Assembly: GCA_044226625.1 (NCBI GenBank)
Contig: JBGAGQ010000054.1
Coordinates: 1-46,377 of the forward strand
Length of the DNA stretch: 46,377 bases
DNA from: Thermoanaerobaculia bacterium
GTDB lineage: Bacteria > Acidobacteriota > Thermoanaerobaculia > Multivoradales > UBA5704
Direction: 5' to 3'
Positions 9,036-46,231 of this stretch are shown one piece after another (positions within the stretch are counted from its first letter, which is position 1; the number at the start of each line of letters is the position of its first letter). The notes under the pieces were generated by a model. That model worked only from the letters and a program-made list of their open reading frames with translations. It did not search any database and was not told the origin of the DNA. A program made the translations under genes and the position numbers.

Positions 9036-11903
9036 ATGACTCGTGTCAACGCTTGTACGATCGTGTCGAACAACTACCTGGGCATGGCCCGGGTCTTCGC
9101 CGAGTCGTACAAACGTCATCATCCGGGGGCCGAAGTGTACGTCTGCTTCGCCGACCAGCCGGACCCTTCGATCCATTACGGACAGATGCCGTTCGTGCCG
9201 ATCTTCGCGGCCGAGCTGGGGATCCCGGCGTTCGCGAACTTCGCGTTCCGTTACGACATCCTGGAGCTGAACACCGCCGTCAAGCCGTACCTGCTCGAGC
9301 ATCTGCGGACCAAGCACGGCCTCGACCGGATCTTCTATTTCGATCCCGACATCCTCGTGCTCGACTCGGTCGAGCCGCTCGAACGGCTGCTCGACGACCA
9401 TCCGGCGGTGCTGCTGCCCCACATCACCCACGGGCTCGACGACGGCCTGATTCCGCCCGAGCGGATGATCTTGCTCGCCGGCGTCTACAACCTCGGATTC
9501 CTCGGCCTGCGGCTCGACGCCTCGACCGCCGAGTTCCTCTCCTGGTGGCAGGACCGCCTCTACCGTTTCTGCGTCAACGACATCCACAACGGGGTGTTCG
9601 TCGACCAGTCATGGATGGACCTCGCCCCCGCGTTCCTCGACGACGTGGCGGTCGTGCGCGATCCCATCTACAACGTCGCTTACTGGAACCTCGCGCAACG
9701 CGCGACGGCGCGCGACGGCGACCGCGTAAAGGTCGACGGGCGGCCGATCGCCTTCTTCCATTTCAGCGGCATCGAGTTCGACAACCTCGAGGTGATCAGC
9801 AAACACCAGAACCGCGTCTCGCTCACCTCCCGGCCGGAGCTGCGGCCGCTGTTCGAGCGCTATCGCCAGCTGGTGCGCGAGGCCGGACATCCCCAGTTCG
9901 TCGGCATCCCGTACGGCTTTCGCCAATTCACCGGCACCGACGTGACCATCCCCTGGGTCGCGCGGCGCCTGCTCCAGCGCATGGATCCCAAGGGGAGGCG
10001 CTGGCCGAATCCGTTCGACCTCTACAACGAAGACAGCTTCCTCGCCTTCCTGGTCGAGCCGGTCCACTACCCCGGCGGCGTGCTCACCCGCGCTGCGCTC
10101 GCCCTCTGGGAGCTGCGCGAAGACCTGGTGCGCGCCTTCCCGGAGGTCTGCGGCCGCGATCTCAAGCGCTTCGCCGACTGGCTGAAGCTCCACGGCGAAG
10201 GGGTGCGCGCGGGGCTCCATCCGATCTTCCTCGAGCCGGTCGGGCCGAAGGACGGCCATCGTTACCGCCGCTCGACCTTCGGGCCGCAGCTGCACCCTTA
10301 CGAGACGATCGCCACCGAGCGCGCGGGCGAGCTGCTCGCCAAGGTCGACCTGTCGCGCCCCGAGTCCATGACCGCCTGGCTCAACGAGCCGATCCCCGGC
10401 GCGGCGGAGCGAACGCCGTGGATCACCCGGCTCGCCCTGCTGCTCTGGCGCATCCGCCCCGACGTCCAGCGCAGCTTCCCCGATCCGCTGGAGGCCGATC
10501 AGGCCGCCTACGCCGACTGGTTCTGCCGCCACGCCCCGAGCGAGTTCCACCTCCACCCCGACCTCGTCGAGCCGGTTTTGAAGACGCTGCCGCGCAAGAC
10601 CCGCATGGCGTTGAGAGTCCGCCGCCACGCCGCCGAGGCGCGCCCCGCCCGGCTGGTCGCCGCGCCGGAGGCGCACGACGCCGCGGGCGCCCCGGAGCCC
10701 AGCGCGGCGCACCCGGTCGCGAGACCGAAAACGCTCGCCGCTCCGCTCGAGGACGGCGCTGGCCGCCCGCTCGCGGTGAACCTCGCCGGCTACTTCGGCA
10801 TGGACACCGGCGTCGGCGAGATCGCACGCGGCAGCCTCGTCGCGCTGGCGGCGGCCGGGATCGAGACCTTGCCGGTGCCGCTCGACCAGGACCTGCAGAG
10901 CCGGATGATCGACGGGCGGCTCTGGCTCGACGACGGCGCGCCGCACCCCCTCACGATCCTCCACGCCAACGCGGACGAGACGCCGCGCGCGCTTTCGATG
11001 ATGCCGATCGCGGGCGCCGCGGGCGGCTTCAAGGTCGGCTACTGGTTCTGGGAGCTGTCGCACTTTCCGCTCGCGCTCACCGACCGTTTCGGCCATCTCG
11101 ACGAAGTCTGGGCGCCGAGCCGGTTCTGCGAGGCGAGCTTCGCGCCGGTCGCGACCGTACCGGTCCGCTACGTGCCGCCCTGCGTGCCCGCGCCCGAGCC
11201 CCAGCGCGAGCCGATCGCGGCGCTGCGCAGCCGGCTCGGCCTCGAGCCCGGCCGCTTCACCTTCTTCTTCGCTTTCGACGTCCTTTCCGTCCCCGAGCGC
11301 AAGAACCCGTTCGCGGCGATCGAGGCGGTGCGGCGGCTCGCCCGGCGGACCCGCCGCCCGTTCGGCCTCGTGCTCAAAGTCTCGCGCGGCAAATACGACG
11401 GCGCCCTGGTCGCCCGGCTGCGCGAGACCGCGCGCGGGCTGCCGATCGAGATCCAGACCGCCCCGGCGTCCCGCGCTCAGATCGAATCCTGGATCGCCGC
11501 CTGCGACGCGAACCTCTCGCTCCATCGCTCCGAAGGGCTCGGCCTGCTGCCGATCGAGACGCTCTACGCCGGCAAGCCCGTGGTGGCGACCGGCTACGGC
11601 GGCGTCACCGATTTCCTCGACGAGACGACCGGATACCCGGTCCATCACCATCTGGTCCGCCTGGAGCGCGACCACTCCCCTTATCCCGCGGGGGCCGTCT
11701 GGGCCGAGCCCGATCTCGACCATGCGGTCGACCAGATGCTCCGCGTGCTCGAGCATCCCGACGAGGCCGCCGCGCGCACGGCCACCGGCAAAGCCCGGAT
11801 CGAGGCGCTCTACGGCACCGAGGCCGCCTCCGCGCGCTTCGCCACCGAGGTCCGGCGGATCTACGCCCAGCTCCACGCCGAACGGTCCCCCGCGCGAGGC
11901 TGA
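9036..11903 (+). CDS. Multidomain glycosyltransferase (N-terminal GT-A-like module plus C-terminal GT4/GT-B)
   Basis: N-terminus has ELNTAVKP, YFDPDI (DxD), GVYNLGF, VDQSW, YNVAYWNL and FFHFSG. C-terminus has GYWFWEL, DEVWAPS, ERKNP, SLHRSEGLGL and GKPVVATGYGG. Confidence 0.88.
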   Translation: MTRVNACTIVSNNYLGMARVFAESYKRHHPGAEVYVCFADQPDPSIHYGQMPFVPIFAAELGIPAFANFAFRYDILELNTAVKPYLLEHLRTKHGLDRIFYFDPDILVLDSVEPLERLLDDHPAVLLPHITHGLDDGLIPPERMILLAGVYNLGFLGLRLDASTAEFLSWWQDRLYRFCVNDIHNGVFVDQSWMDLAPAFLDDVAVVRDPIYNVAYWNLAQRATARDGDRVKVDGRPIAFFHFSGIEFDNLEVISKHQNRVSLTSRPELRPLFERYRQLVREAGHPQFVGIPYGFRQFTGTDVTIPWVARRLLQRMDPKGRRWPNPFDLYNEDSFLAFLVEPVHYPGGVLTRAALALWELREDLVRAFPEVCGRDLKRFADWLKLHGEGVRAGLHPIFLEPVGPKDGHRYRRSTFGPQLHPYETIATERAGELLAKVDLSRPESMTAWLNEPIPGAAERTPWITRLALLLWRIRPDVQRSFPDPLEADQAAYADWFCRHAPSEFHLHPDLVEPVLKTLPRKTRMALRVRRHAAEARPARLVAAPEAHDAAGAPEPSAAHPVARPKTLAAPLEDGAGRPLAVNLAGYFGMDTGVGEIARGSLVALAAAGIETLPVPLDQDLQSRMIDGRLWLDDGAPHPLTILHANADETPRALSMMPIAGAAGGFKVGYWFWELSHFPLALTDRFGHLDEVWAPSRFCEASFAPVATVPVRYVPPCVPAPEPQREPIAALRSRLGLEPGRFTFFFAFDVLSVPERKNPFAAIEAVRRLARRTRRPFGLVLKVSRGKYDGALVARLRETARGLPIEIQTAPASRAQIESWIAACDANLSLHRSEGLGLLPIETLYAGKPVVATGYGGVTDFLDETTGYPVHHHLVRLERDHSPYPAGAVWAEPDLDHAVDQMLRVLEHPDEAAARTATGKARIEALYGTEAASARFATEVRRIYAQLHAERSPARG

Positions 11904-12930: not shown

Positions 12931-15900
12931 GTGAGCTCCGAGCCGCTTCGTTCGAATGCGTCTGGCGGAAACTCGTCTATCCCTGCGGTCTTGGGCCGAG
13001 CCCTCGTTCTTTCGGCGGGCCTCGGCTTCGTGAGCTTCGCGTTGTCGGGCGCCGGCTCGGGAAGCGCCGGGGCCCCGGCGCCGGCCGCGGCGGTGACCCG
13101 GACTCTCCCCGCCGTCGCCGACACGACCCTCCGCCAACAGCAGGCGAACCAGAACCGGGGCACCGACGAGCTGCTGCGCCTCGGCTGGGCGCAGGGGAGC
13201 CGCGCGCTGGTCCGCTTCGATTCGAACGCCATCCGAACGGCCGTCGGAACCGGCCGCCTGCTCTCCGCGCACCTCGAGCTCTCCATCGACGCAACCGGCG
13301 AGAGCTGGGGCAACGCACCCCAGAACGTCGGCGCCCATCGCGTCACCGTCGCCTGGACCGAGAAGGGCGCCACCTGGAACTGCGCCGTCGACTCGAAGCC
13401 GAGCGACAACCGGGCGGATTGCAATCCGCAGTGGAGCGGCGGCGCGTTTGACCCGGCCCCGACCGCGACCGTGCCGCACACCAAGCAGAGCCGCGGTCTC
13501 GTGCGTTTCGACGTCACCGCGGACGTCGCCGGCTTCCTCACCGGTACGGCGAACTACGGCTGGCTGCTCAAGAAGGCGAACGAGGCGCTCTCGGGGCGGA
13601 TCGACTACGTCTCGCGCGATGGCGAGGACGACGAAGAGGACGACGACGCCCCGGCGGGTGCGATGCTGGATCGCGACGACCGGGATGACGACGAGACGAA
13701 CGGCCCGCGCCTGGTGCTCTCGATCGACCCGGGCGGCGCTCCCGACACGACCCCGCCCACGACCTCGTTCGCCGCCCCGGCCGACGGCAGCCTCCTCGCG
13801 AACGCCCGGCCCACCGTCGCCGTCACCTGGTCGGACGCGGGCTCCGGCCTCGACCTCGCGACCGCCAAGCTCACCGTGGACGGCGCGACGCGCACCGCGG
13901 AAGCTACGGCGACCGCCGCGGGGCTCACCTTCACTCCGGCCGCGCCGCTCGCCGACGACTTCCACTCCGTCACCGTCGAGATCCGCGACCGGGCGGGCAA
14001 CGCGAGCTCGGCGACGCTCGGGTTCACGACGGACGAGACGGCGCCAGTCGTCGCGTTCCTCGAGCCGGATGGCAATCCCGTCACCGGCTCGCTCTCGCCC
14101 ACCATCTCCACGTCGTTCCTCGACGCCACGTCGGGAGCGGACCCGGCGACGGTTCAGATCACTCTCGACGGCGCACCCCTTGCCGGCTGCCTGATCGACC
14201 CGGTCTCGGCGAGTTGCTCGCCGCCGCGACTCGCCTTCGGCGCGCACGTCGCAACGCTTTCGGTCCGCGACCGGGCCGGCAACGCCGCGACGACCAGCCT
14301 GCCGTTCGAGCTCGCCGACCTCTCTGCGCCGACCGTCGCGATCGACACCCCGAACGCGGGCGTCTACCTCGCGACGCCGACCGTCGACCTCGAGGTCACC
14401 GTCGAGGACGACGTCGAGGTGGCGACCGTCGCGATCAACGGCGTGGCGGCGGCCGCGATCGACGAAGGCCCGTTCGGCCGCTACCACGCCGAGGTCCCGC
14501 TCACCGAAGGGTCGAACCACCTGATCGCGGTCGCGACCGACGCAGCCGGCAAAACCACGAGCGTCGAGCGCGAGGTCTTCCTCGACAGCGTCGCGCCCAA
14601 GGTAACGATCGACGCTCCCGCTCCCGGCCAGCCGGTCAACACCGGCATCGTGCGGGTCGCCGGCCTCGCGATCGACTCCAACGCCATCCTCGCGGTCGAG
14701 GCGAACGGTCTCTCGGCCGTCCGCTCGGCGGATCGCTACGAGGTCATCCTTCCCGTCGGGTCCGGCCCCCAGACGATCAGCGTGCGCGCCCTCGACGCCG
14801 CCGGCAACGTCGGAACCGCCTCGGTGCAGATCGACACCGTCGCGCTGCCGACGATTTCGATCACCTCGCCGGCCGACCTCGCGACCGTCGCCGCGACCAC
14901 GGTCGACGTCGTGGGCTCGGTCTCCGATCCCGCCGCCGTGGTCTCCGTCAACGGTATCCGCGCGGACGCCTCGGGGGGGACCTTCATCGCCCGCGACGTG
15001 CCGCTGATCGAGGGAGGCAACCTGATCTCGGCGGTCGCCACACGGGGAGCCGGCGCGGGCGCCTCCGCCGCCAGCGCGACGATCAACGTCGTGCGCGACC
15101 TCTCTCCTCCCTACCTCGCGATCGCCGCGCCGGCGCAGAACGCCCGCGTCCATACCGCGACCGTCACCGTCTCCGGGCTGGTGAACGACCTGGTCGCCGG
15201 CACCGTGAACGCCGGCGAGGTCTCGGTGAAGGTAGGCCCCGTCACCGCCGAGGTCTCGAACCGCTCGTTCCTGGCCCGCGACGTCCCGCTCGTCGAGGGC
15301 ACCCAGGACCTCGCGGTCGAAGCGGTCGACGCGAGCGGCAACCGGGCGACCGCGACGCTCACCGTCCGTCGCGCCCCGCCCGGTACGGCGCGCATCGAGA
15401 TCGCCTCGGGCGACCTGCAATCCGGGCCGATCGGCTCGCTGCTTCCGCAGCCGCTCACCGTGGCGCTCGTCGACGCCGCGGGCGTTCCCGCGCCCGGTCG
15501 GATCGTGCTCTTCGAGATCGACGGCAACGACGGCTCGCTCGCCGGCGGCAAGCGGCTGATCGCGGTGTCGACCGACGCCGCCGGCCGCGCCGCGACACCG
15601 TTCACGCTCGGCAAGCGGGTCGGCGCCCAGCGCGTGACCGCCGCGTCGGTCGCCTTCGCCGATCCGGTCGTCTTCAACCTCGTCGCCACCCACGGCCCGG
15701 CGAGTCTGATCGTCGCCGACGACGGCACGCTCCAGGTGGGCGTCGCCGGCCTAGAGCTGCCCCGCCCGCTGATCGCCACCGTCACCGACGCCGGCTACAA
15801 CCGGCACCCGGGGATCCCCGTGCGCTTCCGCGTCGTCAGCGGCCAGGGGACGTTCGCTCCCGGCGACCCCGCGGCCGAGAAGGTGGTCACCACCGACGAC

Positions 15901-17901
15901 GACGGCCGCGCGATCGTCTCGTTCTTCCTCTCGCCCGAGGAAGGGATCGCCAACAACCGGATCGAGGCGCGCATCGACGGCCTCGCGACCAGCCCAGTCG
16001 CCACGTTCGTCGCCTCCGGCCGCGCCGCGGGCGATCCGGCGGCGACCTCGATCTCCGGCGTCGTCCTCGACAACTCGAACCGGCCGGTTCCCGGAGCCAC
16101 CCTGCGCATCCTGGACAGCCCGATTACCGCCACCTCCGACGCCGAAGGGCAATTCCGCGTCGAGGGGACCCCGATCGGCGCCGTCAAGCTGATCGTCGAC
16201 GGCTCGACCGTCACCCGTCCCGGCAGCTGGCCCGATCTCGAATTCGTCCTCTCGCCGGTCCCGGGACGAGACAACCCGCTCACGATGCCGGTCTATCTAC
16301 TGCCGCTCGATCTGTCCCGCGCCCTGCCGGTCGACGAGACGCACGGCGGCACGGTCACGCTCGCCGAGGCGCCCGGCTTCGCGCTCGAGATCGTGGCCGG
16401 CTCCGTCACCTTCCCCGGCGGCTCGCGTAGCGGCACGGTGTCGGCCACTCTGGTGCACGCCGACAAGGTTCCGATGGTGCCGAACTTCGGCCAGCAGCCG
16501 CGTTTCATCGTCACCATCCAGCCGGCCGGCGCGCGCTTCGATCCCCCCGCGCGGCTCACCCTGCCGAACGTCGACGGCCTCGCCCCCGGCGCGGTGACCG
16601 AGATGTACTCGTTCGACCACGACCTCGGACACTTCGTGAGCATCGGGCCGGCGACCGTCTCGAACGACGGTCGCACCGTCCGCTCGAACCTCGGCGTCGG
16701 CGTGATCAAGGCCGGATGGCATTGCGGCGGCAACCCCGACACCTCCTGCGACTGCGAGAGCGACGACCCCTGCTTAACGGGCGCGGGCATGTGCGAGGAA
16801 GAGGACTGGAGCGTCGTGATCGACGCCCCGAACGAGGCGGCGAACCTCGACATGACCGTGGCACCCGCCATGCCCGCGATCACGGCCCGCGCGCGCATCC
16901 AGGGGAACGCCCGGGGGCTCGCGACCTTCCAGTGGACCGCCGAGATGAAGCTCACCGGCTGCCTCAAGCAGAGGCCCGACCCGATCCTCCACGCGCCCCC
17001 CATCCCGGGCGGCAACGGGGCGACCTACCAGCCCAACATCTCGCCCATCATGAGCGGCGATCTGACCCTGACCGTCGTGGCGACCGTCGACGGCGAGACC
17101 CGGTCGGCGCAACGCAACGTCGTGATCCGCGGCGCGAACCCGACCTGCGCCGCCGTGCAGCAGGTCCTCGGCGAAAACACCCTGAGCCGCCTCGCCTGCC
17201 AGGAATCCGGAATGAGCCAGTTCGACGTCGTCGCCGGCGGCTTGAACAAATGTCCGTTGTTCAACCGAATGGGCGACGGCGGCGTGGGCATCGGGCAGAT
17301 CACCTCCAACCCCACCTTCGAGGACTACTTCAACTGGCGAGTCAACGTCAGCCACATCCGGCAGCACCTGATCGCTACCAAGGGCCCCGCGGTCGACGGC
17401 TACCGCAGCCAGCTGATGGGCGGCTCGAACCTTCAGATCCCGGCGATGGACAAAGCCCTTCGCGCCCTGTTCGACTCCTACAACGCCTGCCGCACCAAGC
17501 AGGGTAAGGCGAAGCTCACGCGGCTGATCCTGCCCGCGTTCGTCCAGGGCGGCCTCGGCGACAGTCCGGGGCAGTACGAAAGGGACCTGCTGCGCGCCTA
17601 CAACGGGCTCTGCGGCCCCCGGTACCTCCACTATCCCCGGCACCAGTTCCAGCTGCAGGAAGACTCGATATGCGGGCTGATCCTCACCGTCGACGAGGAC
17701 AACCTCGCCGGCACGGCGAGCTGGGTCGAGGTCGATCCCGCCGTCCGCTGCAACGCCCCGAGCCCTCCCCGCTGCCCAAGGAACGGCCGCAATTATGTGG
17801 AGAGGGTGCTGAGCTTCACGCTGCCCAACTGCTCCCGTCCGGCCATCCAGCCGACCTGCCCCGACGAATCCGTCTCCCCCGCCGAGGTCAAATGCCCTTG
17901 A
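12931..17901 (+). CDS. Giant secreted protein: DNRLRE-like N-domain, multiple Ig-like repeats, carboxypeptidase-regulatory-like domain, C-terminal lysozyme/SLT-like domain
   Basis: GAGGAG RBS and hydrophobic signal; ADTTLRQ...RALVRFD...NYGWLLK...PRLVL; repeated DTTPP/DxAGN Ig modules; ISGVVLD..PVPGATL; C-terminal motifs QES, GIGQIT, RAYNG and NYVERV. Confidence 0.82.
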   Translation: MSSEPLRSNASGGNSSIPAVLGRALVLSAGLGFVSFALSGAGSGSAGAPAPAAAVTRTLPAVADTTLRQQQANQNRGTDELLRLGWAQGSRALVRFDSNAIRTAVGTGRLLSAHLELSIDATGESWGNAPQNVGAHRVTVAWTEKGATWNCAVDSKPSDNRADCNPQWSGGAFDPAPTATVPHTKQSRGLVRFDVTADVAGFLTGTANYGWLLKKANEALSGRIDYVSRDGEDDEEDDDAPAGAMLDRDDRDDDETNGPRLVLSIDPGGAPDTTPPTTSFAAPADGSLLANARPTVAVTWSDAGSGLDLATAKLTVDGATRTAEATATAAGLTFTPAAPLADDFHSVTVEIRDRAGNASSATLGFTTDETAPVVAFLEPDGNPVTGSLSPTISTSFLDATSGADPATVQITLDGAPLAGCLIDPVSASCSPPRLAFGAHVATLSVRDRAGNAATTSLPFELADLSAPTVAIDTPNAGVYLATPTVDLEVTVEDDVEVATVAINGVAAAAIDEGPFGRYHAEVPLTEGSNHLIAVATDAAGKTTSVEREVFLDSVAPKVTIDAPAPGQPVNTGIVRVAGLAIDSNAILAVEANGLSAVRSADRYEVILPVGSGPQTISVRALDAAGNVGTASVQIDTVALPTISITSPADLATVAATTVDVVGSVSDPAAVVSVNGIRADASGGTFIARDVPLIEGGNLISAVATRGAGAGASAASATINVVRDLSPPYLAIAAPAQNARVHTATVTVSGLVNDLVAGTVNAGEVSVKVGPVTAEVSNRSFLARDVPLVEGTQDLAVEAVDASGNRATATLTVRRAPPGTARIEIASGDLQSGPIGSLLPQPLTVALVDAAGVPAPGRIVLFEIDGNDGSLAGGKRLIAVSTDAAGRAATPFTLGKRVGAQRVTAASVAFADPVVFNLVATHGPASLIVADDGTLQVGVAGLELPRPLIATVTDAGYNRHPGIPVRFRVVSGQGTFAPGDPAAEKVVTTDDDGRAIVSFFLSPEEGIANNRIEARIDGLATSPVATFVASGRAAGDPAATSISGVVLDNSNRPVPGATLRILDSPITATSDAEGQFRVEGTPIGAVKLIVDGSTVTRPGSWPDLEFVLSPVPGRDNPLTMPVYLLPLDLSRALPVDETHGGTVTLAEAPGFALEIVAGSVTFPGGSRSGTVSATLVHADKVPMVPNFGQQPRFIVTIQPAGARFDPPARLTLPNVDGLAPGAVTEMYSFDHDLGHFVSIGPATVSNDGRTVRSNLGVGVIKAGWHCGGNPDTSCDCESDDPCLTGAGMCEEEDWSVVIDAPNEAANLDMTVAPAMPAITARARIQGNARGLATFQWTAEMKLTGCLKQRPDPILHAPPIPGGNGATYQPNISPIMSGDLTLTVVATVDGETRSAQRNVVIRGANPTCAAVQQVLGENTLSRLACQESGMSQFDVVAGGLNKCPLFNRMGDGGVGIGQITSNPTFEDYFNWRVNVSHIRQHLIATKGPAVDGYRSQLMGGSNLQIPAMDKALRALFDSYNACRTKQGKAKLTRLILPAFVQGGLGDSPGQYERDLLRAYNGLCGPRYLHYPRHQFQLQEDSICGLILTVDEDNLAGTASWVEVDPAVRCNAPSPPRCPRNGRNYVERVLSFTLPNCSRPAIQPTCPDESVSPAEVKCP

Positions 17902-19172
17902 TCACGAGCGCTCCGATGGGACGCCGGTTCCGCGGCCTCGGCCTCGTCGTCGGGCTGTGCTGCTGCGCGATGGTCGGCGGAGTCGCGGCCGCCCAGGAGC
18001 TCTACGTCGTCGACGGCGGCGGCGGGTTCCTTCGCTTCGAGCTCGGAACGGGCAAGGTCTTCGCCGCCTGGTCTCTCGACCCGGTCGCGGGGCTGGGCCC
18101 TCTCGCCGCCGCGGCACCGACACGGGGCGGCTCGGCGGGTCAGACCCCCGCGGTTCCGGCGGAGGCCGATCCGGCGGTCGCCGTGGGCTCGACGCACGTC
18201 GTCGTCGCCTTACCCGGCCCTTCCCCGGCCCCGAGCCGGGAACCGAACCGAGCGGCCTATCGGCTGGCGTCGCTCGCGCTTCCGGATCTCACCCCCACGG
18301 CCGCCCGCTGGACCGTGCCCCAACCGCTCGTTCTCCCCCCGGCGCTCCTCGCGAGCCCGGTGGAAGATCGCCTGCTCGTTCAGTGGCGCGACGAGCGGGC
18401 GGAGGTTACGGCGACGGGATCGACGCTCGTGCTCCGGACCGTGGCGCTCAAGGCCTCGACCCTCGAAGAGGTGGAGCGCTGGGTCGCGCTCGTCCCGGAC
18501 GACGCGCCGGCCTCCCCTCTGCTCGACGGCGCGAGCTTCGCCGCGGACGGCCGGACGCTGGTCGCCCCGGGCCGGGTGATCCGTTTCGAATCCGGCACCT
18601 TCCGCGCCGAGCCCACCCACGTCGCGTGGACCACGGAGCAGCAGGCGAAGCTCGCGAGCTACTCACCGCCGGTGCCGGGCTCGGCGGCGCCGTCCTTCGT
18701 CTACGCGCCGATCCACGCCGCGGCCGGGCGCGAGCTGGTGCTCGTCCGCTCCGAGCGGCCGGAGGTCGCGGGCGACCTGCTGCTCGTCCACGATCCGCTC
18801 ACCGGCGCCTCGTCGCCGCTGTTCGAGGTGCCGCGCGCCACCGCGGCGCTCACGCCGGACGGCCGCCGCATCGTAGTGCAGGAGGTCGTCGCCCCGGCGA
18901 ACCGGGCGGTCTCGCTCACCCGCACCACCGGCAAGCTCCGCGTCCTGGACGCCGATACCGGGCGAGCGATCGCGAGCCTCGAGAGCCCGCTGCTCGCGGG
19001 CACGCTCGAAAACGTCCGGTTCCGCTGCGCCTCGCCCGACGGCCGGACCCTGATCTTCCGCGGCGCCATGGCCGAGGTCGTCGTCGTCGAGCTCGGCCCG
19101 GGCAAGGTCTGGACCCCCAACGTCGGTTTCTCGGTCGATTTCGCCGCGCAATGCGCCTTCCTCGAGGATTGA
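17892..19172 (+). CDS. Exported hypothetical protein with beta-propeller-like repeats (candidate immunity protein)
   Basis: Start is probably at 17892, 17898 or 17916 (the first two overlap the upstream stop), not 17670. Signal peptide GRRFRGLGLVVGLCCCAMVGGVAAA|QE; ADGRTL, TPDGRRI and SPDGRTL turns. Confidence 0.65.
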   Translation: MPLITSAPMGRRFRGLGLVVGLCCCAMVGGVAAAQELYVVDGGGGFLRFELGTGKVFAAWSLDPVAGLGPLAAAAPTRGGSAGQTPAVPAEADPAVAVGSTHVVVALPGPSPAPSREPNRAAYRLASLALPDLTPTAARWTVPQPLVLPPALLASPVEDRLLVQWRDERAEVTATGSTLVLRTVALKASTLEEVERWVALVPDDAPASPLLDGASFAADGRTLVAPGRVIRFESGTFRAEPTHVAWTTEQQAKLASYSPPVPGSAAPSFVYAPIHAAAGRELVLVRSERPEVAGDLLLVHDPLTGASSPLFEVPRATAALTPDGRRIVVQEVVAPANRAVSLTRTTGKLRVLDADTGRAIASLESPLLAGTLENVRFRCASPDGRTLIFRGAMAEVVVVELGPGKVWTPNVGFSVDFAAQCAFLED

Positions 19173-19211
19173 GCCGGAATTCGCCGGATTTTCGGAGATG
19201 AGGTTTCGGAG

Positions 19212-22200
19212 ATGACACCGAACCAGGTCGCACGCCAAGCCCTTCTCGCCGCCGCCTTGGGCGCCTTCGCGCTCGCCGTTCCGGCGCGGGCGCAGCTCGA
19301 CGCGAGCTGCGTCGTGAGCGCTTTCAACCGCTCGGCCCCGGTGCGCGAGGACGGCTCCTGGCGCCTGCCCAACGTCCCCGCGAACCAGGGACGGGTGCGC
19401 GTGCGCGCCACCTGCGTCGCCGACGGCGCGGTGCGCTCCGGCCAGTCGCCGTTGGTGACGCTCGAGGCGAACGGCCAGATCGTCGTGCCGCCGATCGATT
19501 TTTCGACCTTCCGGCAGATCCCGTCCCGGCTCGCCCTCACCGCGCCGGAGGTCCGCCTCGCCGAGGCCGGAGCGACCGTCCAGATCCTCGCCCTCGCGAC
19601 TTACCCCGACGGCTCGACCGAGGACGTCAGCGCGGGAAGCCTGGGCACCAGCTACCGCTCGAGCAACCCGGCGATCGCGGACGTCGACGGGGACGGCCTC
19701 GTCACCGCGCGCGCGAGCGGCATCGCGCTGGTCAGCGCGGTGCAGGAGGGCGCCCTCGCGATCCTGGAAATCACCGTCGTCGTCTCGGGCGACAGCGACG
19801 GCGACGGCATTCCGGACGACCTGGAGATGGCGAACGGCCTCGATCCGCACGATCCGGTCGACGCGCTGCTCGACCTGGACGGCGACGGGCTGACCAACGC
19901 CGAGGAGCTGCTCACCTACGGCACCGCGATCCGCAACGCCGATACCGACGGCGACGGCCTTTCCGACGGCGAGGAGGTCACCCCCGGCGGCGACGGCTTC
20001 CTCACCAACCCCGCTCTCGCCGATACCGACGGCGACGGCGTGGCCGACGGGCTGGAGATCGAAACCCATACCGATCCGACCGATCCCGCGAGCTTCGACC
20101 TCGCCCTCGCGCTCGCCTCGATCTCGCTGTCGCCGCAGAGCCTGGTCCTCACCTTCAACCCGCTGTTCGGCGAGGTGTCGCGCCAGGTCGCCGTCACCGG
20201 GCATCTGCGCGACGGGCGGACGCTCGACCTCACCTCCCGGGCCCGCGGCACCACGTACCTGTCGAGCGACCTGTCGATCTGCAACTTCGGCTCCGACGAC
20301 GGCCGGATCTTCGCCGGCGCCGAGGGGACCTGCACGGTCACCGCGACGAACGCCGGCTATTCCGCCACCGTGCTGGTCACCGTCCGCTCGTTCCGCCCGA
20401 CGGCCCTCTCCTACCTCGACCTGCCGGGCTATCCGAACAACGTCGACGTCTCCGGCCCCTACGCCTTCGTCGCCGACGGCGACGCGGGGCTCGCCGTGGT
20501 CGACGTGAGCGTTCCCGACGCGCCCTCGCTCGCGACGATCCTCAGCGTGCCCGGGATCGCGAACGACGTGCGCGTGGTCGGCGATCTTGCCTACCTCGCC
20601 GACGGCAGCGGAGGCCTCGCGATCGTCGACGTCTCGAGCCCCGACGCGCCCCAGCCGCGCGGCCTCCTCGCCCCCGCCGGCGTCGACTTCCGCGACGTCG
20701 TGGTGCGCGGGGGCGTCGCCTACGTCGCCGACCGCAACGGCCGCTTCTGGCGGATCGACGTGAGCGATCCCGACGCCCCCGCGGTGATCGACATGCTCGA
20801 CCTCACCGACGCCGACGGCGTACCGCTGATCCTCCGCGGCGTCGCGGTAGCCGCCGACGGCACGTTCGCCACGATCGTCGCCGCGAGCGGCGGCGGGGGC
20901 GGAGGCGGCGCCGACCTCCGGTCGAGCGCCATCGCCGGCAGCGGGCTCACCGTGATCGACCTCACCGACCCGATCGGCCTGCGGGTCGCCGGCACCGTGC
21001 CCACCGGCGACGCGCGAGACGTCGCGATCGAAGGCCGCACCGCCTACGTGGCCGACCTGGCGTTCGGTCTGACCGTCGTCTCGCTCGCCGATCTTTCGGC
21101 GCCCGCGGTGGTGGCCTCCGCGCCGGCCGACACCGGCGGCCTGCTGCTCGACGTCGAGCTCACCCGCGGCCTCGCCTTCGGCGCCGACGTCGTCTTCGTC
21201 AACGGCGTCCCGATCTCCGCCATCTCCGGCGACGCCCCGCCGCAGCCGCGGGCGATCCTCGACTTCTCGGCGTACGGCGACGAGAACGGCTCCGGCATCG
21301 CGGTCGACTCCGAGCTGGTCTACCTGACCGCCGGCTTCGCGATCGGCGACGAGCAGACGTCCGGCGGCGGACGGCTCTACATCGGGCGCTACGCCGAGCG
21401 GGCCGACGATCAGGGCGTCCCGCCGACCGTCGCGATCGCATCGCCCGCCGACGGCGCGACCGTGTTCGAAGGGGCCGAGCTGCCGGTGGCCGCCACAGCC
21501 GCCGACGACGTGGGGGTGGCCCGCGTCGACTTCCTTGCCGACGGCGTTCCGCTCTCTTCGGACGTCGCCGAGCCGTTCGAGGCCAAGGTGGTCGTTCCCA
21601 CGGGCGCCACGGCGCTCACGCTCGGCGCCCGCGCGGTCGACTTCGGCGCCAACGAGGCGCTCGCGCCCGAGGTCACCGTGCAGATCGTCCCCGATCCACT
21701 CACCACGGTCGTCGGCTCCGTCCTCGCCCCGACCGGCGAGCCGATCGCGGACGCCCAGGTCGAGAGCGACGGGATCCCGGGAATCGTCGCGCCCGACGGC
21801 ACCTTCTCGATCGCCGGCGTGCCGACGATCCACGGGCCGATCGTGGTGAACGCGAGCGGCACGCTGGACGGCGAGCCGCTCACCGCCCGCTCGGCTGGCA
21901 CCGCTCCGGTCCCCGGCGGCACCACCGACGTCGGCACGATCGTCCTCCAAGGGGCGGCGTGCGCCACCGGCGAGCTCTCGTTCGACGCGATCCCGGCGTC
22001 CCTGCGGGCGATCTTCCTCTGCCGAACCGGCCCGGTCACCCAGCCCGTCGACCTCTACCGCCTCACCGACGGCGGCGCCGGGATCGCGGCACGCGCCCGC
22101 CGCACGGCGTCGGCACACATCGGAGGCGATGAACCCGGAGGCCGGACCGGCAACGGCACGGCGGCGGGCGAGGAGTTCCTGGGGCAGGTCGTCCCCGACT

Positions 22201-22424
22201 CGTCCGGCCGGTTCTGCGCCGAGCTCCGCACCGGCGACCGCTATCTCCTGCGCGCTTTCGTTACCTGCGAGGACGGCCAGATCCAACTCTGCTCGGCTCC
22301 GCTCGAACGGCATCGGTCCGACATCACCGCGCACTGCTCCGACGCCTCGCCGGTCTGCGAGAGCCTCGGGCCGATCGTCTTCCCCTGCGAGCCGGTCGTG
22401 CTCGACGAGCTCGGGGGCCGATGA
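19212..22424 (+). CDS. Secreted Ig-like/TSP3-type Ca-binding/LVIVD-repeat protein
   Basis: Signal peptide ending ARA|Q; SSNPAIADVDGDGLVTA (Big_2-like); DSDGDG/DTDGDG repeats; YAFVADGDAGLAVVDVS-type LVIVD repeats; PPTVAIASPADG Ig domain; Cys-rich C-terminus. Confidence 0.85.
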   Translation: MTPNQVARQALLAAALGAFALAVPARAQLDASCVVSAFNRSAPVREDGSWRLPNVPANQGRVRVRATCVADGAVRSGQSPLVTLEANGQIVVPPIDFSTFRQIPSRLALTAPEVRLAEAGATVQILALATYPDGSTEDVSAGSLGTSYRSSNPAIADVDGDGLVTARASGIALVSAVQEGALAILEITVVVSGDSDGDGIPDDLEMANGLDPHDPVDALLDLDGDGLTNAEELLTYGTAIRNADTDGDGLSDGEEVTPGGDGFLTNPALADTDGDGVADGLEIETHTDPTDPASFDLALALASISLSPQSLVLTFNPLFGEVSRQVAVTGHLRDGRTLDLTSRARGTTYLSSDLSICNFGSDDGRIFAGAEGTCTVTATNAGYSATVLVTVRSFRPTALSYLDLPGYPNNVDVSGPYAFVADGDAGLAVVDVSVPDAPSLATILSVPGIANDVRVVGDLAYLADGSGGLAIVDVSSPDAPQPRGLLAPAGVDFRDVVVRGGVAYVADRNGRFWRIDVSDPDAPAVIDMLDLTDADGVPLILRGVAVAADGTFATIVAASGGGGGGGADLRSSAIAGSGLTVIDLTDPIGLRVAGTVPTGDARDVAIEGRTAYVADLAFGLTVVSLADLSAPAVVASAPADTGGLLLDVELTRGLAFGADVVFVNGVPISAISGDAPPQPRAILDFSAYGDENGSGIAVDSELVYLTAGFAIGDEQTSGGGRLYIGRYAERADDQGVPPTVAIASPADGATVFEGAELPVAATAADDVGVARVDFLADGVPLSSDVAEPFEAKVVVPTGATALTLGARAVDFGANEALAPEVTVQIVPDPLTTVVGSVLAPTGEPIADAQVESDGIPGIVAPDGTFSIAGVPTIHGPIVVNASGTLDGEPLTARSAGTAPVPGGTTDVGTIVLQGAACATGELSFDAIPASLRAIFLCRTGPVTQPVDLYRLTDGGAGIAARARRTASAHIGGDEPGGRTGNGTAAGEEFLGQVVPDSSGRFCAELRTGDRYLLRAFVTCEDGQIQLCSAPLERHRSDITAHCSDASPVCESLGPIVFPCEPVVLDELGGR

Positions 22425-24082
22425 CCCGGCTCCCCTCGGGCCCGACCCGCCGTGAGCTGCTCGGCGGGCTCGCGGCGGCGGCGCTCGCGCCTCCTGCGGC
22501 TCGAGCGATTCACGCGGTCGACGCGGGGGAAGCAGGAACGCCGGCGCGGCACGCGCCGGCCGCCGCCGCGAAGCTCGACCCCGCGCTCGAGCGCGCCTAC
22601 GAGGTGCGGGTCGCCGCCGCGCGGTTGGCACGCGACGCCGGATCGGCGGCGCAGCGGAGCAACGGCGACGAGGAGCGCCTCCCCGCTCGGATCGCCGCCT
22701 TTTCCAAGGGGCTGCCGCACGACGCCGCCGGGCGGGTGGACGAAAAGTCCTACGCCGTGCTGCTCGCCGCGCTCCGGAGCGGCGCGCCCGAGGATTTCGA
22801 GCGGGTGCCGCTCGGCGGCTTCGCCAAGCTCGCCAACCCGCAAGCCGCCTGGGCGATCGGCCTCGTCGGCCCCGATCCGTCACAGCTCGCCTGCCCCCCC
22901 GCGCCGGCATTCGACGGCGCCGAGCAGGGGGCCGAGCTGATCGAGCTCTGGTGGCAGGCACTCCTGCGCGACGTCCCGTTCACCGCCTACGAGAGCCATC
23001 CGCTCGTCCGCTCCGCGTGCGACGAGCTGTCGCGCCTGCCCGCCTTCACCGGTCCGCGGCTCGGCGGCGCGGTCACCCCGGCGACGCTCTTTCGCGGCGC
23101 GACGGAAGGGGATCTCGCCGGGCCCTACCTCTCGCAGTTCCTGGCGAAGCCGATCCCGCTGGTACCGACGATTGTCGAGCAGAAGAACCGCACGGCCGTC
23201 CCCGGCCTCGACTACATGACCGAACGAGCCGGGTGGCTCGCGATCCAGAACGGCGGCCTGTCCGGCGTCAACCAATTCGAGGCCAAGCCGCTGTTTCCGC
23301 GGAACGGCCGCGACCTCGGCGAATACGTCCATCGCGACTTCTCCTACCAGCCGTATCTCGCGGCGGCGCTCCAGGCGATCAAATGGGGGACGCTGCCCGA
23401 CGGCGGCAACCCTTACAAGCACTCGCGAACGCAGAGCGCGTTCGCGACCTTCGGCCCGCCCTATTTGCTCGCGCTGCTCGCGACGGTCACCCAGGCCTGC
23501 CTCGCCGTCTGTTGGTACCAGAAGTGGCGGGTCCATCGCCGGCTGCGTCCGGAGGAGATGGCCGGCCGGGTGGAGATCGCGCGCGGCGGCCCCGACGAGG
23601 CCAGCGCGCTCCTCGCGTCGCACCTGCCCCCCGGGCTGCTGGATTCGGCCGCCCTCGCCGAGGTGACGAAGCGCGCGGGCACCGCGCTCCTCCCTCAGGC
23701 CTATCCGGAGGGGTGCCCCATCCATCCCTCTTACCCCGCCGGGCACGCGGTGATCGCGGGCGCGTGCGTGACGGCGATCAAGGCCTGTCTCGACGAGTCG
23801 CACGTCGTGCCGGCGCCGGTCGTCCCCACGCCGGACGGACTCGCGCTTGAGCCCTACCAGGGTCCGCCGCTCTCGATCGGCGGCGAGCTCGACAAGCTTG
23901 CGAGCAACGTCTCGCTCGGCCGCGATTTCGCCGGCATCCACTGGCGGAGCGACGCCGCCGCCGGCCTGCGTCTCGGCGAGGAGGTCGCGATCCGCGTCCT
24001 CGCGGAGATGAAGCTCACCGGCAACGAAATTTTCGAAAGCTGGAGCCTGCGCCGCTTCGACGGCCGGCGCGTCTCGGTCTGA
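22421..24082 (+). CDS. Tat-exported vanadium-dependent haloperoxidase
   Basis: Twin-arginine signal TRRELLGGL; vanadate-site motifs QKWRVHRRLRP, HPSYPAGHA and GRDFAGIHWRSD; ATGA overlap with the upstream gene. Confidence 0.9.
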   Translation: MTRLPSGPTRRELLGGLAAAALAPPAARAIHAVDAGEAGTPARHAPAAAAKLDPALERAYEVRVAAARLARDAGSAAQRSNGDEERLPARIAAFSKGLPHDAAGRVDEKSYAVLLAALRSGAPEDFERVPLGGFAKLANPQAAWAIGLVGPDPSQLACPPAPAFDGAEQGAELIELWWQALLRDVPFTAYESHPLVRSACDELSRLPAFTGPRLGGAVTPATLFRGATEGDLAGPYLSQFLAKPIPLVPTIVEQKNRTAVPGLDYMTERAGWLAIQNGGLSGVNQFEAKPLFPRNGRDLGEYVHRDFSYQPYLAAALQAIKWGTLPDGGNPYKHSRTQSAFATFGPPYLLALLATVTQACLAVCWYQKWRVHRRLRPEEMAGRVEIARGGPDEASALLASHLPPGLLDSAALAEVTKRAGTALLPQAYPEGCPIHPSYPAGHAVIAGACVTAIKACLDESHVVPAPVVPTPDGLALEPYQGPPLSIGGELDKLASNVSLGRDFAGIHWRSDAAAGLRLGEEVAIRVLAEMKLTGNEIFESWSLRRFDGRRVSV

Positions 24083-27436: not shown

Positions 27437-28003
27437 ATGACCGCCCCGCTCCCCCCGGACCTCCAAGCCCTCGCCGACCCGCTCGACGCCGCCGACCGCG
27501 ACGCCCGCGACCTCGCCTCCGGCCTCTCGGAGGAGCGCGGCACGACCCGCCCCACCCCCGACGCCTGGAGCGTCGCCGAGTGCCTCGATCACCTCGCGAC
27601 GACCAACCGCGTCTACCTCGAATCGTTCCTCGAGCCCGCACGCAAGGCCCGAGCGGCGGGCCGCCTCCGCCGCGGCCCCGCGCGCCCGGGTTTCTTCGGA
27701 GCGATGTTCGTCGCCTCCGTCGAGCCGCCGCCCAAGTGGTGGAACAAGCTCCCGGCCCCGAAGAAGATCCGCCCCCACCCTTCACCCCCGCTCCGCGCCT
27801 CGCTCGACGCCTTCCTCGCCTCGCAAGCCGCCGTGCGCGACTTCCTCGCGCAGAACGCCGACCTCGATCTCTCGGGCGTAGGGTTTCCGAACCCGTTCCT
27901 CCCCGGCGTCCGCTTCAGCCTGGCGACCGGCCTCACCGTGATTCCAGCGCACGATCGAAGGCAGCTGTCGCAGGCTCGGCGGGTGTTGGGGCGGTTGGGG
28001 TGA
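27437..28003 (+). CDS. DinB-superfamily protein
   Basis: WSVAECLDHL motif, KLPAP and C-terminal PAHDRRQ; TACGAT lies 6 nt before the ATG, suggesting a leaderless transcript. Confidence 0.8.
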   Translation: MTAPLPPDLQALADPLDAADRDARDLASGLSEERGTTRPTPDAWSVAECLDHLATTNRVYLESFLEPARKARAAGRLRRGPARPGFFGAMFVASVEPPPKWWNKLPAPKKIRPHPSPPLRASLDAFLASQAAVRDFLAQNADLDLSGVGFPNPFLPGVRFSLATGLTVIPAHDRRQLSQARRVLGRLG

Positions 28004-28034
28004 GGCGGGAAGGAACAGCCTGGAGGCGATCGGA

Positions 28035-28625
28035 ATGGAGATTTCAGGCAAACCCCTGGTCGTGGTGGTGGCAGGCCCCAACGGCGCGGGCAAGAGCACG
28101 AGCGCCCCGCGGCTTCTCCGCGACACGTTCGAGGTCCGAGAGTTCGTCAACGCCGATGCCATCGCTCTCGGACTCTCGGCGTTTCAGCCGGAAGCCGTTG
28201 CCATCACGGCCGGGCGAGTGATGCTCACGCGAATGAACGACTTGGCTCGAGAGGGGGCGGATTTCGCCTTCGAAACGACCCTCGCCAGTCGGTCGTTTGC
28301 GCCTTGGCTTCAGAGCCTACGAGGAAGAGGCTACCGCTCGCATGTCATCTTTCTCTCATTGCCGAGCGCGGACCTCGCCGTGGCCCGCGTCCGGGATCGA
28401 GTCGAGATGGGAGGGCATCACGTACCGGATGACGTCGTCCGCCGTCGATTCGTTCGCGGCCTGAGTAACTTCTTTTCGCTGTACCGAGATGCTGCGGATT
28501 CCTGGCAGTTCTACGATAATTCTACGGTGGCGGCACCAAGGTTGATCGCCGAAAGAGAAACGGGCCTAGAGGACCGCGTTTTCGACCCAGCTGCATGGAA
28601 GAGCATCCAAGAGCGAGCGATATGA
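28035..28625 (+). CDS. Zeta-toxin-like/AAA_33 P-loop kinase
   Basis: GGAGG RBS; AGPNGAGKST Walker A, FVNADAIA, FAFETTL, RVRDRVEMGGHHVP and YDNS. Confidence 0.88.
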   Translation: MEISGKPLVVVVAGPNGAGKSTSAPRLLRDTFEVREFVNADAIALGLSAFQPEAVAITAGRVMLTRMNDLAREGADFAFETTLASRSFAPWLQSLRGRGYRSHVIFLSLPSADLAVARVRDRVEMGGHHVPDDVVRRRFVRGLSNFFSLYRDAADSWQFYDNSTVAAPRLIAERETGLEDRVFDPAAWKSIQERAI

Positions 28626-28819
28626 CGATGGCAAAAGACACCCGCCCTCCTTCCGAACGAGTCAACGACACCGCCCTCGTTCGGGAGAGCCTGGCCCTGT
28701 CGATCGAAGATGCGCTCGCAAGGCACAAGCAAGCCGGTAAGCCCGTCGCCGTCTGGCGCGATGGGCAGGTCGCTTGGATTCCGCCGGAAGAGATCCCGGA
28801 TCGGGTCGAGCGGGAGTGA
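28622..28819 (+). CDS. Small partner protein of the zeta-like ATPase (possible antitoxin)
   Basis: ATGA overlap with the ATPase stop; ALARHKQAGKPVAVWRDGQVAWIPPEEI resembles small proteins commonly found after this ATPase family. Confidence 0.7.
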   Translation: MTMAKDTRPPSERVNDTALVRESLALSIEDALARHKQAGKPVAVWRDGQVAWIPPEEIPDRVERE

Positions 28820-30081
28820 CGGCGCCCGGCAGGCTCCGTGCCCTCCTCGGCGTAGCTTTCCTGGCGCTCTCAGCCGGCTGTTCGCTCGCCTCCTCTCCGG
28901 CCCCTCCTCCGTCGGCCCTTCCTGCCTTGGCGCTCGCGCCCCCGGTCGAACACCTCGACGGGAAGGCGAGAGAACCGATGGTCGTCGAAACCCCTGAGGG
29001 CACGCTGTTCCTGGCCGGTTACGGAGAGGGCCATCCGACGCTCTGGCAGAGCGGGGACGGTGGCGCCACCTGGACGAGCGTCTCCGTCGGCACGATTCCC
29101 GAGGGAGGGAGGGGCAACTCCGACGTGGACCTCGCCCTGTCCGCCGACGGTACCCTCTATTTCGTCGCGATGTCCTATGACCGCACGGCGGGCGAAGGCA
29201 CCGCGATCAGCGTCGGCGCGAGCCACGACAAGGGAGCCACCTGGACCTGGACGCTCCTCTCGAAAACGCGCTTCGACGATCGCCCCTGGGTGGAGGTCAC
29301 CCCCGACGGGACCGCGCACGTGATCTGGAACGACGGCGAAGGCGTCCGCCACGCGACCAGCCGAGACCGCGGCCGCACTTGGACCGAGCGGGAACGGATC
29401 GATACGGAAGGGGGATCGAGCCACCTCGCGGTCGGACCGAACGGCGAGATCGCCGTACGCGTGACTCCGCTTTCCGCCTCCGGCAACAAGTTCCATCCCG
29501 GCGTCGACCGGATCGCCGTGAGCACCGACGGCGGCACCACCTGGCGGAAACAGCCTGCCCCCGTCCGGCGCAGCTGGATTTTCCCGATGGCGGACGACGA
29601 TCCGCGTCCTCGCTGGGTCGAGCCCCTCGCCTGGGACGCCCGGGGTACCCTCTACTCCCTCACCACGAACGAAGAAGGGCTCTGGCTCGCTCGCTCCACC
29701 GACCGCGGCGCCACCTGGTCGAGCTGGCGCATCGCCCAAAACGCCGATCCGATGTTCTACCCCTACCTCGCCGCCCGAGGCCCCGGAGAGCTCGCCGCCA
29801 CCTGGTTTTCCGGAACCCTCAAGACCCTGGAAGCCCACGTCGCCCGGATCGATCTCCCCCCCGGCAACGTCCCGCCGCGAGTGTCCGAAGCCCCACCGTT
29901 CCAGCCCGACAGCTGGAGCCTCGAGCCGGTGCCGGAAGGAGGCTCTCCGATCCCTGACACCGCGGGCGAATACCTGGCCGTCCTCTTCCTGAAGGACGGC
30001 GATCTCGCCGTGGTGAGCCCGATCCAGAATCCGAGCGCGAAGCGGTTCGGGTTTGCTTGGCGGCGGGTGCGGGTGGAATAG
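28816..30081 (+). CDS. BNR/Asp-box repeat (sialidase-like) lipoprotein
   Basis: GTG start overlapping the upstream TGA; lipobox LSAG|C; five Asp-boxes (SGDGGATW, SHDKGATW, SRDRGRTW, STDGGTTW, STDRGATW). Confidence 0.82.
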   Translation: MTAPGRLRALLGVAFLALSAGCSLASSPAPPPSALPALALAPPVEHLDGKAREPMVVETPEGTLFLAGYGEGHPTLWQSGDGGATWTSVSVGTIPEGGRGNSDVDLALSADGTLYFVAMSYDRTAGEGTAISVGASHDKGATWTWTLLSKTRFDDRPWVEVTPDGTAHVIWNDGEGVRHATSRDRGRTWTERERIDTEGGSSHLAVGPNGEIAVRVTPLSASGNKFHPGVDRIAVSTDGGTTWRKQPAPVRRSWIFPMADDDPRPRWVEPLAWDARGTLYSLTTNEEGLWLARSTDRGATWSSWRIAQNADPMFYPYLAARGPGELAATWFSGTLKTLEAHVARIDLPPGNVPPRVSEAPPFQPDSWSLEPVPEGGSPIPDTAGEYLAVLFLKDGDLAVVSPIQNPSAKRFGFAWRRVRVE

Positions 30082-30120
30082 GGACATCTAGGAGGGCCGA
30101 CCGAAGCGGTTGCTGGGTCC

Positions 30121-30150
30121 TTGACACCTGTGGCCGCTTCGACTTAATCT
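30121..30150 (+). promoter_or_regulatory. Sigma70-type promoter for the defence operon
   Basis: Perfect TTGACA, 18-nt spacer, TAATCT, in an A/T-richer intergenic region about 130 nt upstream of the helicase. Confidence 0.55.
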
Positions 30151-30282
30151 GCGCAAAGCCTTGATAAATATTGGAGTTGAAGCAAAGCGTTCCGCGCCGT
30201 CAAGCCAGGAAATGAATCGCCGTGTGCTGGCACCCGCCTTTCCGCCCCGCCGAGATGCGCCGCGCTCTATGAGTCGACCGCT

Positions 30283-38614: not shown

Positions 38615-38672
38615 CGACCTCGTGGCGATGGCGATGAACGACGTGCCCTCACGGGAAGAAGGAATCTGATCC

Positions 38673-42702: not shown

Positions 42703-42801
42703 GGGCAGCAGCAGCAGATCCCTAACACACTTGCGCAACGCCTGTGTCTCCTGACCCAGACCTGGGAGCCAGCTCATGGCTCCCGCAACCAGGAGACCTC
42801 G

Positions 42802-46184: not shown

Positions 46185-46231
46185 CGCCGGGGTTTCCCCA
46201 TCCCCCCTTGGCGTGGCATGATCCAGGCACG

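Follow-up and report, generated by a model that had tools for sequence, protein, structure and literature searches.

Sec-dependent ('T2SS', type II secretion system) polymorphic toxins combine a signal peptide, a long repetitive stalk, a conserved pre-toxin region and an exchangeable C-terminal toxin with an immunity gene directly downstream and with orphan cassettes, and ZU5 is listed among the processing domains of the class (Zhang, de Souza, Anantharaman, Iyer and Aravind 2012, PMC3482391; here and below, the sections of that paper that were consulted). The same layout, with a candidate in the place of the immunity gene and a ZU5-like domain before the toxin, is found in a four-gene locus (genes A to D, Table 1) on a 46,377-nt stretch of DNA from a Thermoanaerobaculia bacterium of the phylum Acidobacteriota (contig JBGAGQ010000054.1 of assembly GCA_044226625.1; the whole stretch is called the window below). 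We propose, with a probability of roughly three in four, that this locus is a polymorphic toxin-immunity system whose pre-toxin module and partners are new.

Several features set the locus apart from the class of Zhang et al. (2012). Its stalk consists of Ig-like domains with a DNRLRE head and not of RHS, ALF or filamentous-haemagglutinin repeats; its ZU5-like domain stands directly before the toxin, fused to a transthyretin (TTR)-like domain, whereas the ZU5 of RHS/SpvB proteins is N-terminal according to the paper; the system includes a vanadium haloperoxidase and a conserved LVIVD/TSP3 partner; and its recognisable toxins act on the envelope and are not nucleases or deaminases. Bacterial teneurin-like YD/Rhs toxins are also among the closest known systems (Jackson et al., reviewed in PMC6425310). 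Their marks (YD repeats, Rhs-associated core) were found neither in gene A nor in 23 homologues, and those of contact-dependent inhibition (CDI), namely a two-partner secretion (TPS) domain, filamentous-haemagglutinin repeats, the VENN motif and CdiB, were found neither in genes A to D nor in their neighbours by Pfam and NCBIfam searches. As an initial annotation of the window had stated, no CdiB/TPS, Rhs/YD, VgrG, PAAR or LXG family matched genes A, B or C or their neighbours at the thresholds used.

A further group of known systems acts in the periplasm. In the T6SS (type VI secretion) pairs Tse3-Tsi3 and Tle-Tli and in pesticin-Pim, an effector that degrades peptidoglycan or phospholipid is encoded alongside an exported periplasmic immunity protein. 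The likeness of our locus to these pairs is one of layout, and it has no T6SS parts, TonB-box or colicin-type domains.

Results

A conserved module in gene A is followed by unrelated tails

Residues 1100-1290 of the gene A product were searched against 5.8 billion proteins, which yielded 1510 homologues at E<=1e-3, and the best 120 of these (65-87% identity over the query) were examined. The few proteins with a named source among them mostly carried metagenome-assembled genome (MAG) labels of Thermoanaerobaculia or Acidobacteriota. All 120 have the motif G-W-[HAT]-C-[GCSAD]-G at the same position, and after it they continue in 11 unrelated tail clusters, with one protein truncated; within this best-120 set the tail of the window's protein is common only to P0006. 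Compared with 119 homologues, the gene A product showed 33-55% identity along its Ig stalk and a peak of 84-85% at aa 1151-1250, just before the junction, after which the aligned fraction fell to 0.19 at aa 1301-1350 and to 0.01 after aa 1451. The motif, GWHCGG in gene A, lies at aa 1262-1267 (nt 16714-16731), and cysteines are distributed unequally around it, with four in aa 1-1261 versus 17 in aa 1262-1656. These data bear out the initial annotation, which had described a large exported protein with DNRLRE-like and Ig modules that changes its character abruptly near position 16735.

Scanning one genome per species gave 80 further loci. Together with the window's own genome they contain 84 module matches, 78 of which carry [AG][GS]WHC.G, and 78 complete genes whose tails fall into 32 clusters. 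Pfam families recognised in the tails were phospholipase A2 (PLA2G12, Phospholip_A2_3), Peptidase_M15_3, 3D, DUF6973 and PKD spacers, and some tails gave weak M10/reprolysin matches. Cysteine makes up 6.8% of the residues in tails versus 0.5% in stalks. Unrelated C-termini after GWHCGG had been predicted for homologues of the stalk, and this is what both samples contain; the opposite outcome, one C-terminus and one downstream gene retained by all homologues, did not occur.

On a quick module tree the tail type changes 41 times (minimum 30; 52-60 with shuffled labels), a count to which errors of a tree built from a short alignment could have added, and which is compatible with some exchange of tails. 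In locus L014 a second copy begins at the module, has neither start codon nor leader, and is followed by a small adjacent ORF (open reading frame) of its own; we therefore read it as an orphan cassette, the one clear case found. The window's own genome yielded no orphan tails or immunity genes of other types.

The adjacent ORF changes with the tail

Gene B begins 10 nt before the end of gene A, has a hydrophobic N-terminal leader and matches no Pfam or NCBIfam family, in agreement with the exported orphan gene that had been reported to abut or overlap the gene A stop. In the other loci the adjacent ORF was defined as the longest same-strand ORF starting between 60 nt ahead of the gene A stop and 400 nt past it, and co-variation was counted for ORFs that were not homologues of gene C and started no more than 100 nt past that stop. 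The 57 adjacent ORFs fell into 30 clusters, and the ORF type was common to 94 of 106 pairs of loci with the same tail versus 5 of 1490 pairs with different tails, although these pairs are not independent because the loci are related. A different neighbour for each tail had been predicted, and such co-variation is the pattern expected for cognate immunity genes. A hydrophobic N-terminal segment was present in 52 of the 57 ORFs, several of which encode HEAT, LRV or TPR repeat proteins.

Gene B itself has a single homologue in the 80 loci, at 47-54% identity depending on the alignment. It is found in L004, where it adjoins a toxin with the same tail as that of the window, and no other locus was found to combine the same full-length tail with a comparable adjacent ORF. 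Among 400 other genomes of the phylum no real homologue of B was detected, with three marginal matches (E 1e-4 to 5e-4). We infer that B is the immunity protein for the window's tail.

A conserved partner and a haloperoxidase accompany the toxin gene

The second large Ig/TSP3/LVIVD protein that had been noted downstream is gene C, for which Pfam confirmed the domains: Big_2, TSP3_bac, four LVIVD stretches (a propeller), Big_7 and CarboxypepD_reg follow an N-terminal 'QLDASC' domain. Homologues of C, with 36-50% identity over about 700-920 aa, follow gene A directly or after the small ORF. When we considered the 61 loci with at least 3 kb of sequence after gene A, the N-terminal domain (QLDASCVVS...) was present downstream and on the same strand in 58, at a median distance of 1.4 kb, so that a conserved partner of the LDASCVVS type, as had been anticipated, does accompany the changing tails. 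In locus L062 the partner ORF as called has about 217 residues upstream of this domain, and several other partners are extended upstream to a similar degree, by about 200-245 aa.

The system extends beyond the range covered by the initial annotation. Gene D, translationally coupled to gene C, overlaps its end by 4 nt, starts with a twin-arginine leader (RRELLGGLAAAALAPPAARA) and gives a full-length match to the vanadium-dependent bromoperoxidase 1qi9_A (E 3.7e-74, aa 57-548). Three motifs of PAP2/vanadium haloperoxidase (VHPO) enzymes were aligned, WYQKW.VHR..RPE, HPSYP.GHA and GR..GIH.R.D, and we take the aligned residues to be those of the PAP2/VHPO active site. Homologues of D with 49-68% identity occur in 32 of the 80 loci, and in 19 of the 34 loci with sufficient sequence D comes after C. 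Judged by these matches, gene D is a frequent fourth component of the putative system. Four more D homologues lie elsewhere in the window's own genome, two on contig C123 and one each on C45 and C3.

The module is widespread in Acidobacteriota

A full HMMER scan with aa 1034-1656 against 1.84 billion representatives (clusters at 50% identity) returned 4308, 2995 and 1182 representative clusters at E<=1e-3, 1e-10 and 1e-30, respectively, nearly all of which match only the first ~250 residues of the query. By these sequence matches the module occurs in 1182 or more protein clusters, most of them from Acidobacteriota. In the genome scan 66 of the 80 loci were labelled Acidobacteriota; the others come from MAGs labelled as other phyla, and some of these may be binning errors.

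Copy number varies among relatives. The window's own genome and 20 relatives have from 0 to 8 module matches per genome, and five of seven other genomes of the window's genus have a match. The window's own genome has three copies, two of them divergent (44-46% identity) and located on contig C76, where a paralogous locus at about 42994-79009 contains ORFs of 1736, 2038, 2461 and 5197 aa. The modules lie in the ORFs of 2038 and 2461 aa; both are without GWHCGG, and downstream of each comes a small ORF with a hydrophobic leader. The 5197-aa ORF opens with the N-terminal domain of gene C.

The second domain of the module is ZU5-like

The first domain of the module gave a Pfam CarboxypepD_reg match at aa 1040-1090, and aa 1100-1656 matched no Pfam family even at E<=10. 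A predicted model of aa 1034-1656 has a mean pLDDT (predicted local distance difference test) of 81. In this model residues 95-234 form an all-beta domain, residues 235-257 a disordered Cys-rich linker (pLDDT <50) and residues 258-368 an FN3/PKD-like domain, while the end domain is mostly helical.

A profile of the all-beta domain, built from 37 close and distant members, matched ankyrin ZU5 domains in the PDB (6m3p_E, E 1.3e-4; 6m3q_E, 2.2e-4; 4d8o_A, 3.6e-4; 3ud1_A, 7e-3). The Pfam ZU5 family (PF00791) was matched below threshold by 15 of the 37 members, with a best E of 0.0028. These profile matches indicate that the second domain of the module is ZU5-like. The same profile gave a weak match to FAM171A1 (9y63_A, E 0.55, below significance), and a protein atlas gave leads to ZU5 and to the FAM171 N-terminal family, members of the latter lying among the clusters nearest to the module.

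The ectodomain of FAM171A1/A2 has been described as a carboxypeptidase-regulatory-like domain followed by a ZU5-like domain, in a trimeric 'novel superfamily' (bioRxiv 10.1101/2025.09.18.675241; PDB 9y63; cited for the available part of the preprint). The bacterial module has the same two-domain order, carboxypeptidase-regulatory-like and then a ZU5-like beta-sandwich; the FAM171 proteins, by contrast, are animal neuronal membrane proteins, and the sequence signal that connects them to the bacterial module is weak. A term search of the same part of the preprint returned no word starting with 'bacteri', 'prokaryot' or 'toxin'.

In polymorphic toxins ZU5 acts as a self-cleaving processing domain, usually N-terminal in RHS/SpvB proteins, and it also occurs in other surface proteins with enzyme domains (Zhang et al. 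2012). Self-cleavage is an attractive idea here because the W-H-C at the end of the ZU5-like domain coincides with the toxin junction. Across the main clade and the paralogues, invariance is limited to Gly-Trp and an F-[DN]-H motif. A general role in self-cleavage is weakened by the replacement of the His and Cys in divergent paralogues, and for the main clade we consider self-cleavage possible, at somewhat less than even odds. The proposal that GWHCGG marks the junction between stalk and toxin is accordingly upheld within the main clade and fails in paralogues of 33-46% identity.

The window's own tail resembles lytic transglycosylases in three motifs

Family-1 lytic transglycosylases (GH23/SLT) have an E-S motif, a G-L-M-Q-like motif and an A-Y-N-x-G motif. 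QES, GVGxxQxT and RxYNG in the window's tail resemble these. Across eight related tails E1425 (in QES), Q1430, G1453, Q1456, N1472 and W1598 are invariant, and the six closest tails keep G-V-G-x-x-Q-x-T (aa 1451-1458) together with R1555 and G1559 of R-x-Y-N-G. On these motifs the tail is a candidate peptidoglycan glycosidase. Pfam searches at E<=10 with C-terminal pieces of 623 aa and 383 aa recovered CarboxypepD_reg alone, and comparison with PDB sequences by phmmer and profile found nothing credible (alginate lyase, E 1.3; CirpA1, E 0.047). Fold searches with the 623-aa model (pdb, pdb_via, pdb_via_wide and viral sets) matched only the TTR-like domain and the FN3/PKD spacer, and left the ZU5-like and end domains effectively uncovered. 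The 'lysozyme-like' tip of the initial annotation therefore keeps the support of its three motifs, but Pfam, PDB-sequence and fold support did not follow and the label is not confirmed.

Tails of this type are rare. A 'longer' homologue search returned three proteins besides the window's own, all with the same architecture, and a 'near' search returned one, P0267, a 565-aa metagenome fragment. In P0267 the spacer and a tail of the window's type (28% identity) sit on a different Ig-type stalk, rich in Thr, Ser, Gly and Gln, without the TTR/ZU5-like module; this tail cassette is thus also found on another carrier.

Layout of the locus and its neighbours

The window has a G+C content of about 70%. 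Judged by GC3 (G+C at third codon positions), genes A to D are four closely packed genes on the same strand at 12.9-24.1 kb (Table 1); A and C, like B, start with hydrophobic leaders. Their arrangement and the comparisons above suggest that they are probably an operon belonging to a large family of polymorphic toxins found mainly in Acidobacteriota. The glycosyltransferase, TauE, S8 peptidase and DinB genes upstream have no counterpart in the 80 related loci, and we therefore place them outside the system.

Table 1. Coordinates of genes A to D and of the parts of gene A in the window
Feature	Position	Strand	Description
Gene A	12931..17901	+	1656 aa, exported polymorphic toxin candidate, P0001; ORF and translation; GC3 0.92
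Gene B	17892..19172	+	ATG start, 426 aa; exported candidate immunity protein
Gene C	19212..22424	+	1070 aa; conserved partner
Gene D	22421..24082	+	P0268; vanadium-dependent haloperoxidase homologue with twin-arginine translocation (TAT) signal
A, DNRLRE/CBM96 head, aa 57-233	13099..13629	+	NF033679, E 1.2e-18; PF24517, E 3.3e-8
A, Ig-like stalk, aa 272-1033	13744..16029	+	Pfam Big_13, Big_7, four Glucodextran_B, weak Big_1
A, TTR-like (CarboxypepD_reg) domain, aa 1034-1126	16030..16308	+	First half of the conserved pre-toxin module
A, ZU5-like beta domain, aa 1127-1267	16309..16731	+	GWHCGG at its end; most conserved part of the family
A, Cys-rich linker, aa 1268-1290	16732..16800	+	Cys at aa 1273, 1275, 1281 and 1288
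A, FN3/PKD-like spacer domain, aa 1291-1401	16801..17133	+	
A, variable tail end domain, aa 1402-1656	17134..17898	+	Candidate peptidoglycan glycosidase, by motifs only

Two further regions of the window were observed. A 955-aa protein at 9036-11903, which in its C-terminal part gives matches to glycosyltransferase group 1 and to 'GT4 in conflict systems' (PF20706, E 6e-8), has the TauE-family permease and gene A just downstream of it. At 28000-46377 the G+C content falls from about 72% to 60-66%, and this stretch, which encodes an SNF2/helicase protein with a NOV_C domain (30181-33855) and a HEPN_Swt1 and DUF499 protein (38670-42011), looks like a defence-type island.

Discussion

The architecture of gene A, the polymorphism of its tails, their co-variation with the adjacent ORF and the conserved synteny with gene C recur across the loci that we compared. 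All three comparative predictions of a polymorphic toxin (unrelated tails, differing adjacent genes and a conserved partner) held, which supports this reading of the locus. In the mechanism that we propose, all four products are exported, A, B and C by Sec-type leaders and D by its twin-arginine leader. The gene A product has a long stalk with a DNRLRE/CBM96 head and Ig-like domains, then the TTR and ZU5-like pre-toxin module, whose last strand (GWHC.G in the main clade) leads into the Cys-rich linker, often an FN3/PKD spacer, and the exchangeable C-terminal effector. After crossing the outer membrane, A would deliver an antibacterial toxin: the recognisable effectors (phospholipase A2, M15 peptidoglycan peptidase, 3D and a zinc-peptidase-like domain) are predicted to attack the cell envelope, and the window's tail is a rare type with an invariant Glu and lytic transglycosylase- or lysozyme-like motifs. 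A candidate site of self-cleavage, by which the tail may be released, is the ZU5-like domain with its C-terminal His-Cys. Exported B, specific to the window's tail, would bind it and neutralise it in the periplasm of the producer, with C as the conserved partner and D as the frequent fourth component.

A number of results weigh against this interpretation. Neither an outer-membrane transporter nor a known secretion marker was found by Pfam and NCBIfam among genes A to C and their neighbours. Twenty of 31 tail representatives have no Pfam family, and five more have only a PKD spacer. The adjacent ORFs were called by a crude rule, and the dependence among related loci noted above also tempers the co-variation. 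Some adjacent ORFs are not immunity genes: the one in L077 is a transposase, and a di-haem peroxidase-like adjacent ORF is common to three tail types in the Bryobacterales-type loci L073, L076, L078 and L080. In at least one locus with a tail of the window's cluster, L062 (848-10523), there is no separate small ORF between toxin and partner. At the junction, paralogues of 33-46% identity have GWGG[CGA] or GWH[GA][SA] and so do not keep the His and Cys of GWHC. For the window's tail type, none of 10 tail-bearing proteins matched a lysozyme/SLT Pfam family at E<=10, the stand-alone model of the end domain was poor (pLDDT 54.8), and Foldseek with that model gave no match at E<=1e-3. As profile and fold searches were negative or uninformative, 'lysozyme-like' is a reasonable guess for this tail and not a finding.

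The di-haem peroxidase-like ORF mentioned above is about 550-570 aa long, with DHOR/cytochrome c matches (Pfam on the L073 copy), and is a second peroxide-related enzyme in these operons.

Gene A could instead be a surface carrier of enzymes that degrade or remodel extracellular polymers or feed on the walls of dead cells, in which case it would not be a weapon and the small ORF would encode a tail-specific chaperone, inhibitor or anchoring factor. Zhang et al. (2012) read surface proteins with ZU5 and enzyme domains in this way, the head of A belongs to the carbohydrate-binding module family CBM96, and the lack of known toxin-delivery machinery would also fit. We nevertheless consider an enzyme carrier unlikely: the 32 tail types pair nearly one-to-one with exported neighbour genes, some of the neighbours have repeat-protein folds, the orphan module-tail cassette of L014 has a neighbour gene of its own, and copy number is patchy inside one genus, all of which are hallmarks of toxin-immunity conflict and not of nutrient acquisition. 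Recognisable tails that are lipid and peptidoglycan hydrolases, and a window tail family with an invariant Glu in an enzyme-like motif, speak in turn against A and C being structural adhesins or envelope-layer proteins, whose variable tips would serve in evasion of phages or predators or in kin recognition without enzymatic killing, the linked ORF being a co-receptor. That explanation has in its favour the long Ig stalks, the TSP3/LVIVD propeller and the Ca-binding repeats typical of adhesins, the many tails without a recognisable enzyme family, and the adhesion-type ectodomain that the TTR and ZU5-like pair forms in animal FAM171 proteins, as far as the available part of the preprint describes it; we regard it as very improbable.

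The polymorphic toxin-immunity reading that we prefer can be carried further. The TTR and ZU5-like module may be a new toxin-presenting device, possibly trimeric and self-cleaving, which together with the LVIVD-propeller partner and the secreted haloperoxidase would make a surface weapon of three parts, in which hypohalous-acid chemistry or oxidative cross-linking joins the enzymatic toxins and whose route is unrelated to types V, VI, VII or Rhs; the animal FAM171 ectodomain would then have descended from a bacterial stalk module, as teneurins did from YD toxins. We hold this extended proposal to be doubtful.

The initial annotation had spoken of an undescribed class. No paper describing the family was found in open-access full text (the supplements of PMC3482391, which might list members, were outside the search), nor did we find in the open-access literature the TTR and ZU5-like module, the LVIVD/TSP3 partner or the haloperoxidase companion described as a toxin system. 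That claim needs tempering, however, because the second domain of the module is ZU5-like and, in the consulted sections of PMC3482391, ZU5 already figures among the processing domains of polymorphic toxins. What appears to be new is the family, with its size and its components; the concept itself is established. The family also puts a ZU5-like domain directly at the toxin junction, connects that domain with the fold pair of the animal FAM171 proteins and associates a vanadium haloperoxidase with a putative toxin operon.

In soil, Acidobacteriota rank among the most abundant bacteria, and to our knowledge little is known about how they compete. The family described here numbers no fewer than 1182 clusters at 50% identity, has as many as eight module matches in one genome, and contains dozens of putative effector domains without a database name, each paired with a candidate immunity gene. 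It would thereby offer, already sorted, a collection of new enzymes that target the envelope, together with their inhibitors.

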